From positions 32,001-96,000 of the forward strand of contig CBFGTS010000011.1 in the NCBI GenBank assembly GCA_965652295.1: a stretch of 64,000 nt of DNA, read 5' to 3'. Each line of letters begins with the position of its first letter. The first letter of the stretch is position 1. Below, one piece after another: positions 14,774 through 22,553 of the stretch. The translations under genes and the position numbers were made by a program. The notes under the pieces were generated by a model. That model ran no database searches, was not told the origin of the DNA, and worked only from the letters and a program-made list of their open reading frames with translations. The stretch comes from an uncultured Haloferula sp. (GTDB taxonomy: Bacteria > Verrucomicrobiota > Verrucomicrobiia > Verrucomicrobiales > Akkermansiaceae).

Positions 14774-14909
14774 GAGGTGGGACGCCCTCGTCCCACAAAA
14801 GGTGGAGCTGGTCTCACCGATGTTGGGGAAAACGAAACTCCTCCTGCTGCCGCCTTCAAGAGCGCCGCGGGCTGCGAGGGTTACGGGACGAGGGCGTCCC
14901 GCCTCCTAT
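14770..14909. repeat. REPIN/MITE-like element of two inverted 25-bp REP arms
   Basis: ATAGGAGGTGGGACGCCCTCGTCCC (14770-14794) and its inverse (14885-14909), 24/25 identical; each arm is internally palindromic. Confidence 0.85.
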
Positions 14910-15976
14910 TCCAAAACGTCCGGATAGGAGCCGAGGATCTTCACCAGCGAGCAGTGTTTTTCCAGTTCGCCGAGGGCTTCCTTGACCGCTTCATCGGCGC
15001 AGTGGCCGGCGAGGTCGACGTAGAAGATATACTCCCAGTCCTTGCGTTTGGAGGGGCGGCTCTCGATCTTCGACATGTTGATATCGAAATGCTCGAAGGC
15101 CTGCAGGGCGCGGACCAGGGAACCGGGACGATCATGGATGGCGAACAGCAGGGAGGTGCGATCGTTGCCGGTGGGGGGGCAGGTTTTTTCGCCGATCACC
15201 AGGAAGCGGGTGGTATTGGTCGCGCGGTCCTGGATGCATTCCTCGAGCATCTGGAGGCCGTTCATTTCGGCAGCCAGCGGTCCGCCGAGGGCTGCGGCAC
15301 CTTCGGATGCCTTCTCGCGGGCGATTGCGGCGGCGCGGGTGGTGGAGGACACCTCCACGAGGTCGGCCTCGGGGAAATGGCGCAGGATCCAGGTGCGGCA
15401 CTGGCCGAAGACCTGGGGGTGGGAATAGAGCGTGCGGATCTCCTCGCGAGGGATCGCGGCCATCAGACCGTTTTCAATGCGCAGCAGGATCTGGGCGCAG
15501 ATCTGGAGATGGGAGTCGACGAACAGATCGAGGGTGTGGGAGACGGCACCCTCGGTGGAGTTCTCGATCGGGACGACGCCGTAATCGGCCCTGCGACGGC
15601 TGACCTGATCGAACACCTCGGCGAAATTCGGCTGGGCCGAGTAGGCAACGGAGTGGCCGAATTTCTTGATCGCGGCCTGGTGCGTCCAGGTGCCTTCGGG
15701 GCCGAGGTAGGCGATCTTGAGGTCGTCCTCGAGCGCGAGGGCGGCGGACATGATCTCGCGGTAGATGGCGCGGATCGATTTCTCCGGCAGGCGACCGGAG
15801 TTCATCTCGATGAGCTTTCGCAGCAGGGCTTCTTCGCGCTCCGGGGCGTAGATCTGGAGGCCATCGCGCTTTTTCACCACGCCGACTTCATGGACGAGTT
15901 CAGCGCGCTGGGAGAGGAGCTGGAGGAGCTGGTGGTCGATGCGATCGATGTCGCGGCGGATGTCGTCGAGGTTCAC
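14906..15976 (-). CDS. pheA: Chorismate mutase / prephenate dehydratase (P-protein)
   Basis: CM_2 N-terminus, YLGPEGT, VPIENSTEG, NTTRF, ACT domain with IESRP. Confidence 0.96.
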   Translation of the reverse strand: MNLDDIRRDIDRIDHQLLQLLSQRAELVHEVGVVKKRDGLQIYAPEREEALLRKLIEMNSGRLPEKSIRAIYREIMSAALALEDDLKIAYLGPEGTWTHQAAIKKFGHSVAYSAQPNFAEVFDQVSRRRADYGVVPIENSTEGAVSHTLDLFVDSHLQICAQILLRIENGLMAAIPREEIRTLYSHPQVFGQCRTWILRHFPEADLVEVSSTTRAAAIAREKASEGAAALGGPLAAEMNGLQMLEECIQDRATNTTRFLVIGEKTCPPTGNDRTSLLFAIHDRPGSLVRALQAFEHFDINMSKIESRPSKRKDWEYIFYVDLAGHCADEAVKEALGELEKHCSLVKILGSYPDVLE

Positions 15977-16725
15977 GGCGTGTCCTGGGAGGCGGCTTCG
16001 GTTTCCGGCGTTTCCGGAGAAGGTGCGTCGGCCGGGGCGGCGTTCTTGCCGGTGGCCTTGAGGGCGAGCTGTTCCTCGGCGCTGGCGGCGGGCTTCTGAT
16101 CGCCGGGCTCGGGCAGTTTCACTTTGCGCAACTCGCCGGAGTTCGGGAGGTCATCGATCGAGCGGATCCCGAAGTGCTCGAAGAACAGCTCGGTGGTTTC
16201 GTAGAGCAATGGGCGTCCCGGCAGCTCGGCACGGCCGCCGATGCGGACCAGTTCGCGGTCGAGGAGCTTTTGCAGCATGCCATCGCAGGAGACTCCACGG
16301 ACGGCCTCGATGGCGGCCTTGGTGATCGGCTGGCGGTAGGCGATGATGGCGAGCGTTTCCATGGCGGGGGCGCTGAGCCGCTCGGGGCGGCGGCCGGGAA
16401 AAAGATGGCGCACGAATTCGCCGTAGTCGCCGCGGGTGAAAATGCGCCAGCCCTTGGCTCGTTCGGAGAGGGTGAAGGCGCGGCCGCTTTCCTGGTAGTG
16501 GCGGTTGAGCGCGCCGATGGCGGTGACGACGTCCTCGGCCGAGGTGGTGGCCAGCGTGGTAAGCCAGTCCGGCAGGTCGCCCGGTTGCCGGCCTTCCTCG
16601 ATTTCGCGGGCGCGGACGTCCTCGGCTTCCGCCACGCGGGCACGGACGAGGCGGGCGAGTTCCTCGGCGGGCAGGGCCTCGTCCGAGGCGGTGAGGAGGG
16701 CTTCGATGATGGACGGCAGTTCCAT
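15973..16725 (-). CDS. scpB: SMC-Scp complex subunit ScpB
   Basis: IIEALL, LSAPAMETLAIIAYRQPIT, IEAVRGV, GRPLLYETT. Confidence 0.93.
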   Translation of the reverse strand: MELPSIIEALLTASDEALPAEELARLVRARVAEAEDVRAREIEEGRQPGDLPDWLTTLATTSAEDVVTAIGALNRHYQESGRAFTLSERAKGWRIFTRGDYGEFVRHLFPGRRPERLSAPAMETLAIIAYRQPITKAAIEAVRGVSCDGMLQKLLDRELVRIGGRAELPGRPLLYETTELFFEHFGIRSIDDLPNSGELRKVKLPEPGDQKPAASAEEQLALKATGKNAAPADAPSPETPETEAASQDTP

Positions 16726-16911
16726 GGCGGGCGCGCAGCTTAGGTCGTGGTGGCGGCAGTTCAAGCGCGCCGAGTCTTTGGATGGAAAGCCATGCGGGAA
16801 ACTTTCCGCTTGAAGTGAGAAGTCACGGGCGCTAATCGACCGCGCCCCGCTGGCAGAGCTTTTTCCATTGGCTCTGAAAGCGGGCCGCGTTTTCCGAACT
16901 GACCCACACTC

Positions 16912-17502
16912 ATGCCTGCTAAAAAAGCTGCCAAGAAGGCGACGGCCAAGACTGCCGCGAAGAAGGCTCCGGCGAAAAGCTCCGGAGAGAAATCCGCAGC
17001 GGCCGAGACCAAGGCCACCAATGGAGCCGCGAAGCTCAGCCCCTTCATTTCCAAGCAGCGCCAGCGGCTGCTCGACCTGCGCGATGAGTTGGTCGATGCG
17101 ATGTCCGGCGTGGCTGGGGAGATTCGCAACGGCCCGTCCGGCAGCGAGGCCTCCGGCAGCGGCATGCACCAGGGGGATGCGGGCAGCGACGCCTACGACC
17201 GCGACTTCGCTCTCAGCGTGCTGGCGAAGGAACAGGACGCCCTTTACGAGATCGAGCAGGCCTTGCGGCGGATCGAGCGCGGCGTTTACGGCGTGTGCGA
17301 AATGTCCGGGGAGAAGATTCCCCAAGCCCGCCTTGAAGCCATTCCTTTCGCCCGCCTGACGGTCCAATGCCAGGCCGACTGGGAGAAGGATTACGGCAAC
17401 CAGCGCTTCCGTCCGAAGGGCGAGGTGGGCTTCAGCAACGGACGCCTTTCCGATGACGATGAGGATTCGGACTCGGTTTCGCTTGACGGTGACAACGATT
17501 GA
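16912..17502 (+). CDS. TraR/DksA family regulator with only two Cys in the zinc-finger region
   Basis: HQGDAGSD, EIEQALRRI, YGVCEMSGEKIPQARLEAIPFARLTVQC; Ala/Lys-rich N-terminus. Confidence 0.88.
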   Translation: MPAKKAAKKATAKTAAKKAPAKSSGEKSAAAETKATNGAAKLSPFISKQRQRLLDLRDELVDAMSGVAGEIRNGPSGSEASGSGMHQGDAGSDAYDRDFALSVLAKEQDALYEIEQALRRIERGVYGVCEMSGEKIPQARLEAIPFARLTVQCQADWEKDYGNQRFRPKGEVGFSNGRLSDDDEDSDSVSLDGDND

Positions 17503-17555: not shown

Positions 17556-17729
17556 ATGCCACGCGATATCATCATCCTTGAATGCACCGAGGCCCGTGCC
17601 GAGGGCAAGTCACCGTCGCGCTACGTGACGACCCGGAACAAGAAAAGCCTCCGTACGCCAGGTCGTCTCGAGAAGGTGAAATTCAATCCGGCCCTGCAGC
17701 GCCGCACCATTCACCGCGAACTTCGCTAA
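17556..17729 (+). CDS. rpmG: 50S ribosomal protein L33 (not in the ORF track)
   Basis: Manual translation MPRDIIILECTEARAEGKSPSRYVTTRNKKSLRTPGRLEKVKFNPALQRRTIHRELR, 57 aa, directly upstream of rpsR. Confidence 0.93.
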   Translation: MPRDIIILECTEARAEGKSPSRYVTTRNKKSLRTPGRLEKVKFNPALQRRTIHRELR

Positions 17730-17735
17730 TTTATC

Positions 17736-17978
17736 ATGTCCGAACCGAAGACCGTCGAACGCCGGATCGCCTTCCGCAAGGCGAACCGCACCATGCCCCG
17801 CCGCCGTCTGGATATCCCGACGGAGCAAGTCACCTACACGCACCCCGAGCTGCTCTCGAAGTTCACCTCGGACACCGGCAAGATCCTGCCGCGCCGTGTG
17901 ACGGGCGTTTCCGCCAAGCTGCACCGCAAGATCACCCGCGAGATCAAGCGTGCGCGTGCCGTGAACCTGATGCGCTGA
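17736..17978 (+). CDS. rpsR: 30S ribosomal protein S18
   Basis: [19 protein letters not shown]...IKRAR. Confidence 0.95.
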
Positions 17979-18015
17979 ACCGGCGTTTCCGGGAAACGGA
18001 GACCCGCTTTCCAAG

Positions 18016-18050
18016 AAGCCCGTCCGCGTTCCGCGCGTGCGGGCTTTTTT
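18016..18050 (+). terminator. Probable intrinsic terminator after rpsR
   Basis: AAGCCCG...CGGGC stem followed by TTTTTT. Confidence 0.65.
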
Positions 18051-18056
18051 CGTCCG

Positions 18057-18839
18057 ATGAAGGAACTCAAGGATACCCAGAACGAGCGGGACGACCGGAA
18101 TCTGCCGATCGACCGCGTGGGCGTGAAAGGTCTGCGCTTCCCGGTGGAGGTGCGTGACAAGGATGGCTCGACGCAGCGATCGGTGGCCACGGTGGCTCTC
18201 GCCGTGGACTTGCCGGAGCACTACAAGGGCACCCACATGAGCCGCTTCGTGGAAGCGCTCAACGCCCATGGCGGCTGCCTCGATGTCCGCACGATGGCGT
18301 CGCTGCCGGCGGAGCTGCTGGAGCGGCTGGACGCTCGCAAGGCGCATGTGGAGTTCGAGTTCCCATTCTTTCTTTCAAAATCCGCGCCGGTGACCGGTCG
18401 CCCGGGACTGATGGACTACGTGGTGCGCTTCGAAGTCGAAGCCGAACTCGACGGGCCGGTGGATTTCATCGTCACCATCCAGGTTCCGGTGGCCACGCTC
18501 TGTCCGTGCTCGAAGGAAATCAGCGACCGTGGCGCCCACAATCAGCGGGGGATCGTGACCTACTCGGTGCGCTTCCGCGAACCGGTGTGGATCGAGGACT
18601 TGATCGCCTTGGTCGAGCGTTCCGCGAGCTGCGAGCTCTACAGTCTGCTCAAACGTCCGGATGAAAAGGCGGTGACGGAGCGGGCTTACGACAATCCGGT
18701 GTTCGTCGAGGATCTGGTGAGAAACGTGGCTTCCCGCTCGAACGCTCACGACGCGATTCTTTGGTATCGCGTGGAGGCCGAGAATTTCGAGTCGATCCAC
18801 AATCACCAAGCCTACGCGGTGCTTGAAAAACGCGTCTGA
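18057..18839 (+). CDS. folE2: GTP cyclohydrolase I type IB
   Basis: IDRVGV, KGTHMSRF, TLCPCSK, GAHNQR, FVEDLVR, ESIHNH. Confidence 0.95.
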   Translation: MKELKDTQNERDDRNLPIDRVGVKGLRFPVEVRDKDGSTQRSVATVALAVDLPEHYKGTHMSRFVEALNAHGGCLDVRTMASLPAELLERLDARKAHVEFEFPFFLSKSAPVTGRPGLMDYVVRFEVEAELDGPVDFIVTIQVPVATLCPCSKEISDRGAHNQRGIVTYSVRFREPVWIEDLIALVERSASCELYSLLKRPDEKAVTERAYDNPVFVEDLVRNVASRSNAHDAILWYRVEAENFESIHNHQAYAVLEKRV

Positions 18840-18974
18840 ATCCCGCGCCTCTTCCAATGTAATCCGCATGATTCCGCGCAGTTGAAAAACTCGCGGAGAA
18901 TCTTCGATTACTTGAGAGTAAGCTTAAGCAAAGGATTTCCGCTGGTTTTTCAAGATTAGCGGCCTGTCGGAATT

Positions 18975-19200
18975 GTTGGTGTGTGTCCCAGCTGGGGGCT
19001 GGGCCTCAACTTCAGGATCTGATCCGTTTCGGCGGTCCGCAAGGGGTGCATGATTTCTGGGGGGAAGTCATGCGCCCCGCTTCGTTTTCAGTCGGTGGTT
19101 CTCCGAGGTGACTCCGGTCCGTTCCCGGCTGGGGGGATGACCAGAAAGGGACCGGAGTCGTCTGGGGGGAGAGGTTCGGAGTCCCGGCCGCTTTCCTTTC
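18975..19200 (+). ncRNA. Candidate structured small RNA with repeated G-rich-loop hairpins; boundaries approximate
   Basis: CTGGGGG(G) at 18992, 19057, 19129 and 19162; 15-bp and 11-bp stems; G-U pairs favour the + strand; lies between convergent genes. Confidence 0.45.
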
Positions 19201-19289
19201 GGCCGCGCACCGGTTTGATACGTTCATCATCCACGAAACCGGCGGGGCGAACATAACGGCATCGCGCCCCCCCGATCGAGGGAGGAGCT

Positions 19290-22200
19290 TCAGATCGAGC
19301 GGATCATGGCGATCGCCTCATCGAGCATCCTTTTCGGCTCCGTCGCGGTGAGGCGAGGGAAGCGTTTGCCTTCCAGGAAGAGGTAGTCGCCGTTGCGGTG
19401 GATCATGAGGCGCTGGCCCTGGATTTCCACCGAGGCGATGCCGACGTGGGCGGCGAGGAGGCGGAGGCGGGTGACGTCGAGGAGGTTGAGGACGGGTTGT
19501 GGCAGGCGGCCGAAGCGATCGGTCCAACGTTGGATCAAGGCGTCGAGTTCGCGTTCGTTGGCGGCTTCGGAAAGTTCGCGGAAGGCGGAGACCCGGAGCT
19601 GGGTGTCCTCAAGCCAGGCGGCCGGGAGATAGGCGGGCAGGCCTTTCGTCGGTGCCGCGAGATGCGCGGCTTCACGGACGACCAGGAAATCGGCCTTGAA
19701 GGCGCATTCATGGCGGTGGATGGCCTGCTTTCCGCGGAGCCGATCGACGGACTGGCGGAGCAGCCGGCAGTAGAGGTCAAACCCGATGGCGGCGATCTGG
19801 CCGGACTGCCGCGTGCCTAACAAGTTGCCGGCACCGCGGATTTCGAGGTCGCGCATGGCGATGCGGAAGCCGGAGCCGAGGGCGGTGTATTGCTTGATGG
19901 CGTGGATGCGTTTCCGTGCATCGCCGGTGGTCAGCATTTCCCGAGGCAGGAGGAGGATGGCGTAGGCCTTCTCACCGGCGCGGCCGACGCGGCCGCGGAG
20001 CTGATAGAGGTCGGCGAGACCGAAGCGATCGGCGCGGTCGATGAGGATGGTATTGGCATTGGGGATATCGATGCCGGTCTCGATGATGGTGGTGGCCAGC
20101 AGGACGTCGGCCTCGCCATTGACGAAAGCGCGCATGACAAGCTCGAGTTCGTCTTTCTCCATCTGCCCGTGGCCCACCAGAATGCGGGCCTCGGGGACCA
20201 GCTCGGCGAGGCGGTTGCGGACCATCTCGATGGATTTGACCCGGTTGTGGAGAAAGAAGACCTGCCCGCCGCGGGCCAGCTCGCGGCGGATGGCCTCGCG
20301 GATGACGCGCTCATCGTAGGGCGTGACGGTGGTGTGGACCGGGACGCGGTTGGGCGGCGGGGTATCGATGGTGGACATGTCGCGCGCGCCCATCAGCGCC
20401 ATGTAAAGCGTGCGCGGGATGGGCGTGGCGGAGAGCGTGAGGACGTCGATCTGCCGGAACATCTCCTTGAAGCGCTCCTTGTGTTTCACGCCGAAGCGCT
20501 GCTCTTCATCGACGACGGCGAGGCCGAGGTCCTTGAAGGCGATGTCGGAGGAAAGCAGGCGGTGGGTGCCGATGACGATGTCGACCGAGCCATTGGCGAG
20601 GCCCTCCACCGTGGCGCGGGATTCGGCGGCGGTACGGAAGCGGTTGAGGAGATCGATGCGGATCGGATAATCGGACATCCGCTCGCGGAAGGTGCGCCAG
20701 TGCTGCTCGGCAAGCACGGTGGTAGGGCAGAGGATGGCGACTTGTTTGCCGCCGGTGACGGCCTTGAAGGCGGCGCGGATGGCGACCTCGGTTTTGCCGA
20801 ATCCGACATCGCCGCAGACGAGACGGTCCATCGGCTTGGCCGACTCCATGTCGCGCTTGGCCTCGCCGATCGCACGGAGCTGATCCGGTGTCTCGGTGTA
20901 GTGGAAGGACTGCTCGAATTCCCACATCCAACGCGAGTCGGCGGGGTGGGCGAAGCCTTCGTTCGTCTGTCGCTCGGCCTGGACGCGGAGCAGTCGCGCG
21001 GCGTAGTCGAGGATCGCGTCCTCGGCCTGTTTGCGGACTTTTTTCCACGCGGTGCCGCCGAGTTTCGACAGCTCCGGATCCTTTCCTCCGAGCCCGACGT
21101 AGCGCCCGACGAGGTGGGCCTGGTCGATGGGCACCGCGAGCGAGGCACCATCGCGGTATTCGATCAGCAACTCCTCGCTCTCCTCGTTACTACGGATCCC
21201 GGAGAAGCGGCCGATGCCGTATTCGCTGTGGACGACGAGGTCGCCGTCGTTGATCTCCTCCAGCGAAGCCTTGGCTTCGGCGGCCCGGCGGCTGGTGCGG
21301 GTGACGAGAGGAGCGGTGGTGCGGTAGCGGCCGAAGATTTCAGCCGAGGAAAGGATGGCGACCTTGGCGGTGGGGACGGTGAAGGATTCCATCAACTCGC
21401 CGGTGAGCGTCTCAAAGTGACGGTCGGAGCCGGCGGGGAGGAGCTCGATGAAGCGGACGGCCTCGCCTTGGTTGGCGAAGACGATGGCGATCTGCCAGCC
21501 ATCGCGATCCCAGCGGGCGAGTTGCTGGACGAAAGCGTCGCGGCGGATTTCCTCCAGAACGAAGTCGCCTGCCTCGAAGCGTCCGAACGGCTCGGCGTGG
21601 CAGGCGGTGGAAAAGTCCTCTTCGCGGCCGGGATCGGCGGGCTGCGGGGTGATGACCACGGCGGCGTCGCTCTGCGCGGGGTCTTCGGTCAGCTCGATGA
21701 CGAGATCGCCGGGCCGGAGGTAGTCGCCGACCGTGCCGGCCATTTCGGGGTCGGCCAGGGCGAATTCGGCGCGGTCGAGCTTGCGGGCGGAGGTCTGGGA
21801 ATCGAGGTCGAACTCGCGGATCGATTCGATGTCGGTATCGAAAAATTCGATGCGGAGAGGCATCGGGACGTGCCAGGGAAAGACATCGAGGATGCCGCCG
21901 CGGACGGCGAACTGGCCGCGCCCCTGGACCAGCGGAGCGCGCTCGAAGCCCTCGGCGGCAAGCTGGTCGATGAGCCGCGCGGGATCGAGCGGATCACCGC
22001 GTTTCAGCACCACTCGGGAAGCGGAAAGCTCGCCGGGCGGCGGTGCGGGGTGATCGAAGGCATCGGGGGCGGCGAGGACGACGCAGCGTTGGGCACGGTG
22101 GATGAAACCGAGGGCGTCGATGCGTTCGGCGGCGGCCTCCGGGTCGGGGGCTTCGTCGCCCTGGATGCCGAGGATCGGGTCGGGAAGGATGCGGACACGG

Positions 22201-22445
22201 ACGCCCCAGAGCCGGAACTCGGCGGCCAGACGTTCGCGGTTTTTGGGCGAGGGATCGAGGATCCAGGCGCGGTCGCGGGGAGTGGGGTGGCCAAGAATCA
22301 GGGCGATCAGCCAGGCGCGGGCGGCGGGATCGACGTGATCGAACACAGTGCGTCCTCCGCCAGCGGCCACGGCGGCCAGGCGTTGGGCGAAGTCGGGCTG
22401 GTCGGCGGCGGGGCGCAGCCAGCGATCAGGCGCCGGGGAAGGCAC
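19290..22445 (-). CDS. mfd: Transcription-repair coupling factor
   Basis: UvrB-like region, CarD-like RID, GDVGFGKT, DEEQRFG, QLRGRVGR, TRCF C-terminus; probable GTG start at 22445. Confidence 0.95.
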   Translation of the reverse strand: MPSPAPDRWLRPAADQPDFAQRLAAVAAGGGRTVFDHVDPAARAWLIALILGHPTPRDRAWILDPSPKNRERLAAEFRLWGVRVRILPDPILGIQGDEAPDPEAAAERIDALGFIHRAQRCVVLAAPDAFDHPAPPPGELSASRVVLKRGDPLDPARLIDQLAAEGFERAPLVQGRGQFAVRGGILDVFPWHVPMPLRIEFFDTDIESIREFDLDSQTSARKLDRAEFALADPEMAGTVGDYLRPGDLVIELTEDPAQSDAAVVITPQPADPGREEDFSTACHAEPFGRFEAGDFVLEEIRRDAFVQQLARWDRDGWQIAIVFANQGEAVRFIELLPAGSDRHFETLTGELMESFTVPTAKVAILSSAEIFGRYRTTAPLVTRTSRRAAEAKASLEEINDGDLVVHSEYGIGRFSGIRSNEESEELLIEYRDGASLAVPIDQAHLVGRYVGLGGKDPELSKLGGTAWKKVRKQAEDAILDYAARLLRVQAERQTNEGFAHPADSRWMWEFEQSFHYTETPDQLRAIGEAKRDMESAKPMDRLVCGDVGFGKTEVAIRAAFKAVTGGKQVAILCPTTVLAEQHWRTFRERMSDYPIRIDLLNRFRTAAESRATVEGLANGSVDIVIGTHRLLSSDIAFKDLGLAVVDEEQRFGVKHKERFKEMFRQIDVLTLSATPIPRTLYMALMGARDMSTIDTPPPNRVPVHTTVTPYDERVIREAIRRELARGGQVFFLHNRVKSIEMVRNRLAELVPEARILVGHGQMEKDELELVMRAFVNGEADVLLATTIIETGIDIPNANTILIDRADRFGLADLYQLRGRVGRAGEKAYAILLLPREMLTTGDARKRIHAIKQYTALGSGFRIAMRDLEIRGAGNLLGTRQSGQIAAIGFDLYCRLLRQSVDRLRGKQAIHRHECAFKADFLVVREAAHLAAPTKGLPAYLPAAWLEDTQLRVSAFRELSEAANERELDALIQRWTDRFGRLPQPVLNLLDVTRLRLLAAHVGIASVEIQGQRLMIHRNGDYLFLEGKRFPRLTATEPKRMLDEAIAMIRSI

Positions 22446-22553
22446 GGGGCGGAAGGTGGGGGCGGTGCGGAGCTTTGGCAAGAAGCCGCGTCGGAGGGAT
22501 GCCGGATTTGATGGCTTTGCCTGCGGACGAGTGCGTGTTATCTCACGACCCGT

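Follow-up and report, generated by a model that had tools for sequence, protein, structure and literature searches.

Two predicted small RNA families with complementary G-rich and C-rich loops meet between folE2 and mfd in an uncultured Haloferula

What is encoded in the 450-bp gap between the convergent genes folE2 and mfd of this Haloferula genome, where the heptamer CTGGGGG recurs four times? A preliminary description of the window (the whole stretch of 64,000 nt analysed here, whose coordinates we use) had read positions 18975-19200 as one novel small RNA with repeated G-rich loops. Our comparisons indicate that the gap is composed of two elements on facing strands, not one, both predicted from sequence to be small RNA genes (Table 1). 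The gap itself stood as described, with folE2 ending at 18839 and mfd at 19290 and both genes scoring above their NCBIfam cut-offs; the mfd start is that of our own gene finder, and the open frame reaches 23195. Upstream of folE2 lie a DksA/TraR-type gene (16912-17502) and open frames at 17582-18157, 16174-16743 and 14777-16099 that match no Pfam or NCBIfam family.

Table 1. Genes and predicted elements in and around the folE2-mfd gap, in window coordinates
Feature	Position	Strand	Basis
folE2, GTP cyclohydrolase FolE2	18057..18839	+	NF010200, 281 bits (cut-off 215)
Promoter-like motif TTGAAA-N17-CGATTA	18882..18910	+	Pattern before related copies; probably for an alternative sigma factor
G-loop small RNA, ~170 nt, predicted	18917..19089 (conserved core 18976-19090)	+	Model R2, 78.8 bits; covariation; G-U bias
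Predicted 5' hairpin, variable part of G-loop RNA	18939..18962	+	Fold; two G-U pairs read on + strand
First G-loop hairpin tip, G5 at 18994-18998	18987..19003	+	Stem, alignment, fold
Second G-loop hairpin (G6 at 19059-19064), a terminator, followed by an imperfect U tract	19043..19089	+	Covariation, G-U bias, U tracts
C-loop small RNA core, predicted	19095..19183	-	Model R3, 52.6 bits; homologues in relative G021 and at C3:225150
mfd, transcription-repair coupling factor	19290..22481	-	TIGR00580, 931 bits (cut-off 800)

The four CTGGGGG copies first reported begin at 18992, 19057, 19129 and 19162; no other stretch of the 4.37-Mb genome carries four on one strand within 300 nt, and dinucleotide shuffles of 18975-19200 (n = 5000) held at most two. 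The stems noted earlier at 18987-19003 and 19110-19159 are present, as is that at 19043-19078, which contains two G-U pairs, is followed by GCTTCGTTTT and forms the sole terminator-like site. Folding z-scores against shuffles were -3.2 on the plus and -3.8 on the minus strand. An Rfam scan agreed with the earlier statement that no SRP, 6S, RNase P or tmRNA motif could be recognised: the window had no match at the gathering score and, at E ≤ 10, one chance match inside mfd, with none of the Rfam 15 families (6C, cuckoo, CsrB/Rsm, SRP, 6S, RNase P, tmRNA) found over the element at E ≤ 10.

The alignment of the folE2-mfd region across relatives that had been proposed as a check proved impracticable. 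In 0 of 28 relatives was mfd seen after folE2 (some of these loci end at contig edges); folE2 is a non-conserved neighbour, with other genes downstream of it in relatives. A BLAST-type search with the gap in 60 relatives returned no match. Since gene order is not kept and this search was empty outside the genome, the locus was studied through paralogues and models. BLASTN of the gap against its own genome gave two short similar hairpins at E ≤ 0.003; a REP or MITE element, expected in many near-identical copies, was rejected on finding only these two, and none in the 60 relatives.

Hairpin scans and nhmmer retrieved six further copies of 18975-19090 in the genome. A model built from these seven genome copies (R1) gave hits at E ≤ 0.01 in 15 of 61 genomes, of which two owed theirs to single-loop or unrelated terminator hairpins, and a second model (R2) was built from 33 hits including the seven starting copies, leaving out duplicates and two hits above E 0.0002. 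Members of this family begin with a variable 5' part followed by a Y-GGGG-G hairpin; after another variable stretch they close with a terminator hairpin whose loop is of the same type. The loop, first described as an open UGGGGG, is predicted to be a GGGG tetraloop closed by C-G or U-G, with the four Gs unpaired and their flanks paired. Weak hairpin tips (at most 4 pairs) were found in 66 of 115 G-loop tips compared to 13 of 34 controls, a borderline difference (p = 0.054).

In the 33-row alignment, which was fitted to the model and whose kin are not independent, 92.6% of the cells pair, compared to 29-53% in slid controls, and both sides change in 19 of 22 pairs; its covariation score was reached by 0 of 500 shuffles. 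Only the G runs are fixed, with exactly two runs of G5 or longer in 30 of the 33 members. The expectation of conserved loops on covarying stems was therefore borne out in this alignment of paralogues and homologues, and the proposed novel structured RNA is supported, with the difference that just the first two of the four tracts belong to the G-loop family. The UUCG (19028) and GCAA (19039) tetraloops that had been suggested are not conserved at these places.

Several features point to transcription of the G strand. The alignment holds 75 G-U as opposed to 12 C-A oppositions, and a U tract follows the last stem in 46 of 56 members, with an A tract before it in 18. At several copies the upstream gene points away, and these copies therefore need a promoter of their own. 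In the lineage formed by the window's genome (G000) and its relatives G021 and G032, the pattern TGAAA-N17-CGAT(T/A) precedes 13 of 20 copies, the window's included, against a shuffle mean of 0.3, and a sigma-70-like motif precedes 5 of 13 other copies, both patterns having been derived from the same upstream sequences in which they were counted. The position of the motif places the window's RNA at about 18917-19089. Motifs of the TTGAAA-N17-CGATTA type are not enriched before the mRNAs of the genome. The commonest promoter pattern genome-wide is TTGC-N17/18-CTAG. The spacing of the motif resembles that of the sigma-28 consensus; sigma-28 was nevertheless rejected as the driver, no FliA/WhiG scoring over the cut-off in the genome. 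A gene for a small protein or type I toxin was likewise rejected: the longest reading frames in the 33 copies measure 0-50 codons and share no sequence, and no open reading frame is conserved among them.

Could these be something other than RNA genes, such as REP- or MITE-like hairpin repeats scattered through the DNA, or simple terminators? Several copies per genome with changing neighbours, and the proximity of two clusters to tRNA genes (L034:642-714 and L033:3036-3107, at distances of ~0.6 kb to the C21 RNA cluster and 0.9 kb to that on C3, where C numbers denote contigs), would suit such a reading. Yet the copy number is low and pairing is kept while the sequences diverge. The strand bias in G-U pairs and U tracts, the promoter-like motifs of the copies themselves, and orthologous copies that several species keep at the same place, next to a MazG-like gene, also argue for RNA genes, and where the upstream gene points away there is no mRNA to be ended. 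We therefore consider a mere repeat or terminator very improbable.

R2 matched all 35 genus genomes, with 1-12 copies each (about half of the hits inspected individually); the window's genome has 9 and G021 has 12. A family-wide sample gave matches in 3 of 3 genomes of the own genus, in 2 of 4 of one sister genus and in 0 of 18 other genera. In a phylum sample 2 of 149 matched, both of the own genus, and the four extra hits in an order sample proved to be lone terminators with a GGGG or GGAG loop; as each genome search scored only part of the candidates (24-129), the negatives in these samples are weak. Scanning GTDB contigs by pattern retrieved at least 121 loci; among the 80 with titles, 17 score above 40 bits (labelled Haloferula, Luteolibacter, Akkermansiaceae and Verrucomicrobia, with one each labelled Akkermansia muciniphila and uncultured bacterium), as do 14 more among the other 41. 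Viral contigs gave 14 pattern matches, the best at 24.5 bits and none convincing.

Ordinary-looking terminators with CC-GGGG-GG or CC-GGAG-GG loops occur in other Verrucomicrobiales and Akkermansia-type genomes (L108, L109, L110, L111, L047, L068), and such terminators are possibly the origin of the G-loop motif. At the other extreme, G000:C4:171080-171570 holds a very stably folding form of ~480 nt with five G loops, which ends in the family terminator; upstream G tracts are also found in its G021 and G032 orthologues.

The 3' half of the studied stretch belongs to a different element. Positions 19095-19183 align with a repeated element found beside other G-loop copies, and a model of that element (R3, built from 11 sequences, the window copy among them) scores them on the minus strand, which makes the third and fourth tracts more plausible as C tracts on a minus-strand RNA than as G tracts. 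In this orientation a single-stranded C6 (19164-19169) is joined by a short linker to the 19110-19159 hairpin with a C6 loop (19131-19136), both C tracts being predicted unpaired. The window copy has no terminator of its own, so its strand is assigned by homology. The 5' end lies perhaps near 19250, and the transcript could continue into the G-RNA gene, antisense to it.

At E ≤ 0.02, R3 matched 22 of the 35 genus genomes. The 21 hits inspected mostly carry two to eight UCCCCCC(A/G) repeats with a C-loop terminator at the end. The stems of the family covary, and 31 of 37 homologues, training-set outsiders included, have a U tract on the C strand, where the G-U bias is weak (33 vs 22). Outside the genus R3 found nothing convincing (4 of 121 genomes matched, with one weak hit outside the genus), which lends no backing to the idea that C RNAs are older and more widespread than G RNAs. 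Another conserved C-loop RNA is found in 16 of the 35 genus genomes. Searching Rfam with the G and C RNAs of 10 related loci gave only sub-threshold chance hits.

Among the C-loop RNAs, those at L150:1380-1570 and L166 (both G002), L156, L164, L165 and L153 look CsrB-like: they have a C-loop terminator and repeat AUCCCCCC(A/G) five to eight times in single-stranded form, and some of these RNAs are present in tandem copies. The palindrome ACG(C/T)GATC(A/G)CGT, often followed by GGCAAAATCGGACA, lies at G000:C3:225368, C12:43988, C1:337281, C7:64053 and C19:11464 and upstream of many C-loop RNAs. It has 13 intergenic and 12 coding matches in a genome that is ~13% intergenic, and is likely a transcription-factor site controlling these RNAs.

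A single plus-strand transcript with all four G tracts, which might fold into the G-quadruplex envisaged in the preliminary description, appears to us hardly credible. The imperfect U tract after 19078 would permit read-through, and the window C copy lacks a terminator; however, the minimum-energy fold is unchanged when quadruplexes are allowed, so that none is predicted, members of the G-loop family have two G runs and end at the terminator, and homologues of the 3' half carry their U tracts on the C strand. In the one soil metatranscriptome available (n = 1; Logan contigs, 5% of words), a 204-nt contig is 99% alike over 19190-19393 and leaves 18914-19115 uncovered; strand, ends and level are not readable from it.

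The two families are complementary in their loops. The (Y)GGGGGGA of the one is the reverse complement of the UCCCCCC(R) of the other, over 7-10 bases. Six is the usual run length on both sides, found in 93 of 112 G runs and 52 of 73 C runs; A comes after the G run in 91 cases and U ahead of the C run in 60. In G000, G021 and G032, 18 of 40 loops have CU just ahead of the G run, compared to 3 of 70 elsewhere, and AG follows the C run in 13 of 65, compared to 1 of 66 elsewhere. Judged from these sequences, both flanks have shifted in step in one lineage (CUG5 with C5AG), a single event among kin. Outside these three genomes the match ends at 7-8 nt, with CC before the G run in 66 of 70 and GG after the C run in 3 of 66. 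Both the flank shift and the complementarity could also be explained by a common origin of the families via inversion.

In two genomes the genes of the two families also tend to lie together, in convergent and divergent arrangements. A C-loop gene is found within ~600 nt of 6 of 11 G-loop copies in the window's genome and of 3 of 12 in G021, against a roughly estimated chance rate of ~2.5% each. The shared loci are five in the window's genome (the window, C21, C3:59k, C13 and C3:225k) and three in G021; among the other genomes none showed such clustering within 1.5 kb. Among C copies detected without reference to a neighbour, C3:225150 alone lies next to a G copy, and that G copy scores weakly (20.7 bits). 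A 77-residue gene without a Pfam match adjoins G/C clusters at G000:C3:58656-58889 (L033:1157-1390) and at two G021 loci.

After opening costs, the window's G RNA and the adjacent C RNA are predicted to pair with a net -11.2 kcal/mol, a value equalled by 2 of 2398 mRNA 5' regions; -7 kcal/mol is reached by 9 of 10 C RNAs as compared to 144 of the 2398. In this count the 1580 mRNA regions with a C-rich word were scored and the remainder entered as misses, and the comparison is partly circular because the C RNAs were defined by their C tracts. Beyond the main code there is a second complementary one, comprising a G-loop RNA with CACACACACC (L121:1079-1201, G021:C22), the conserved C-loop RNA with GUGUGUGUGUG (L074:1290-1330), and UGGUGUGUG of the window's G RNA (18976-18986), which is predicted to pair with CACACACCA of the C21 C RNA.

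We take the two multi-copy families as established, together with how they fold, the strands assigned to them by homology, their copy numbers, their clustering and the complementarity of their loops. By analogy, and at a little under an even chance, we tentatively propose that the plus-strand RNA is a RosA-like sponge that pairs its loops with the six-cytosine tracts of C-loop RNAs and neutralises them. From transcription on, every step of this scheme is inferred. The RNA would be transcribed from its own alternative-sigma promoter to the G-loop terminator. Its four exposed Gs would nucleate pairing with a C tract, upon which the hairpin tip would open and a duplex of 7-10 bp form, for the two window RNAs between UCUGGGGGGA and UCCCCCCAGA. 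Two G loops could engage two C tracts, in G-C pairing that would proceed without Hfq. The usual binding partner of the C-loop RNAs, either a C-tract-binding protein or G-rich mRNA sites, would thereby be set free. The earlier suggestion of a protein-sponge or base-pairing RNA thus gains in its second half, with a partner that had not been seen, and loses the CsrA-type sponge. In favour of the sponge we count the covarying G-loop family, the genus-wide C partner, the matched run lengths, the flank shift, the clustering, the pairing energy and precedent. Against it we count that only four Gs are predicted unpaired, that a tight tetraloop would suit a protein site equally well, that the match in most genus genomes is a short one of 7-8 nt, and that clustering is limited to G000 and G021.

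The tetraloop may instead point to a protein decoy, in which the Y-GGGG-G hairpin is the site of an RNA-binding protein titrated by the multi-copy RNA. In this scheme the C-loop RNAs would act in the same way on a different protein, and shared regulators would account for the clustering of the genes. A small invariant loop atop freely varying stems, the several paralogues and the ~480-nt five-loop form are what one would expect of such a decoy, single GGGG or GGAG terminator loops exist in other Verrucomicrobiales too, and the genome encodes four RRM genes and one KhpA/B gene. One RRM gene is even divergent from a G-loop copy, but it is the neighbour at 1 of 33 copies only, so that it was dropped as a conserved partner; no candidate protein is tied to the family. 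CsrA (PF02599) was not found in the 98%-complete genome, in a search whose control matched in 3 of 14, and this also disfavours the CsrB-type sponge of the preliminary description. A decoy would moreover leave the equal run lengths and the matched flank shift unexplained, and we judge it unlikely, if still a serious contender.

Alternatively, the G-loop RNA might be a primary repressor, its loops blocking translation by pairing with C-rich mRNA leaders, which would stand in for Shine-Dalgarno sites in this organism, and the multi-repeat C RNAs acting as decoys of the G RNA. Start regions genome-wide are C-rich (C 61% at -1 and 47% at -2) with little Shine-Dalgarno signal; UC5-7(A/G) occurs in 60 of 2401 leaders as against 28 for its reverse complement, some leaders would pair at -9 to -12 kcal/mol, and C RNAs with up to eight repeats do look decoy-like. 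However, by our own gene calls, C tracts within 40 nt of starts are depleted (C5, 125 vs 245 in shuffles; C6, 26 vs 88), and C tracts in leaders are unlinked to genes for secreted proteins with signal peptides or PEP-CTERM (p 0.15-1.0), a connection we discarded. The top predicted targets also differ among paralogues, with no common function or position. This makes direct repression quite improbable. An altered anti-Shine-Dalgarno was rejected as well, the 16S end being the usual CCUCCU in five relatives (the genome's own 16S is not assembled).

Returning to the sponge, a broader version of it can be drawn: a self-contained RNA-RNA titration circuit in a homopolymer code, in which multi-copy G6-loop RNAs with two to five loops and multi-copy C6 RNAs with two to eight sites multiplied in step. 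Their genes, often convergent or divergent, would answer to different promoters, and the RNAs would neutralise each other by multivalent loop pairing, setting a global switch in a lineage that has neither Hfq nor CsrA and makes no general use of Shine-Dalgarno sites. Hfq was not found in the genome with PF17209, used in place of the LSM family profile, which misses Hfq in the control. We hold this broader circuit to be rather doubtful.

Neither RNA family is described in the literature searched, which comprised mostly open papers in their main text, so that a listing in a motif or transcriptome table is possible. The gap therefore appears to hold two new RNA families, absent from Rfam, that most likely work as a known kind of sponge pair in a new architecture. 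The same literature says next to nothing about post-transcriptional control in Verrucomicrobiota. C-rich loops recur in bacterial small RNAs (6C, sX13, RoxS); no mirror-image counterpart, a multi-copy family built on G tetraloops whose genes lie with those of its complements, came up in Rfam or the literature searched. The G/C pair amounts to two short RNAs that can be tested directly, and offers a handle on the role of C-loop RNAs in this group.

Among known systems, CsrB, RsmY and RsmZ are sponges that titrate CsrA through a repeated loop motif, with paralogues and long multi-loop forms. The G-loop family shares the short motif repeated in loops, the several paralogues and the long multi-loop forms, but has Y-GGGG-G in place of the GGA motif in ANGGAN loops, and no CsrA was found. 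Cuckoo RNAs and RepG carry homopolymer loops on stable hairpins and act by G-C pairing. For the 6C RNA, the accessible part of the source describes G-C loop pairing that needs no chaperone (PMC6486639), and for the C-loop RNA sX13 the accessible text, which also mentions the H. pylori RNA, reports G-C pairing without Hfq (PMC3771888). Homopolymer loops, stable hairpins and chaperone-free G-C pairing (here proposed) are the common traits, and the C-loop partner family resembles these RNAs directly, whereas the plus-strand RNA is their mirror image with G loops and neither family matches Rfam. C-rich loops on the transcribed strand are in form present in 19095-19183 read on the minus strand and are absent from 18976-19090, where the G strand has the G-U pairs and U tracts.

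The FopS RNAs of Bacteroides are paralogous sRNAs with the RRM protein RbpB, as far as the accessible part of PMC11697453 goes; Bacteroides RRM proteins with sRNAs also appear in PMC13370968, whose accessible part holds nothing on binding motifs. The likeness lies in several intergenic sRNA paralogues encoded by a bacterium that has RRM proteins and neither Hfq nor CsrA. By the same accessible text FopS RNAs keep a single-stranded 5' seed, whereas here the 5' part and the middle vary and only the loop G runs are kept.

The closest comparison is RosA (S345) of Bacillus subtilis, whose G-rich regions sponge the C-rich RNAs RoxS and FsrA according to the accessible part of its description (PMC8216469), where RsaI of Staphylococcus is discussed alongside. 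As computed here, the G sites find complementary C-rich stretches in more than one small RNA encoded by the same genome; two-site pairing and an own promoter and terminator (here predicted) complete the likeness. The working G regions of RosA are single-stranded in that account (PMC8216469), whereas ours are tetraloops on long stems, one of them the terminator. Here, moreover, both sides are multi-copy families with a G6/C6 code and often adjoining genes, in a different phylum, and the two systems are likened by analogy alone.
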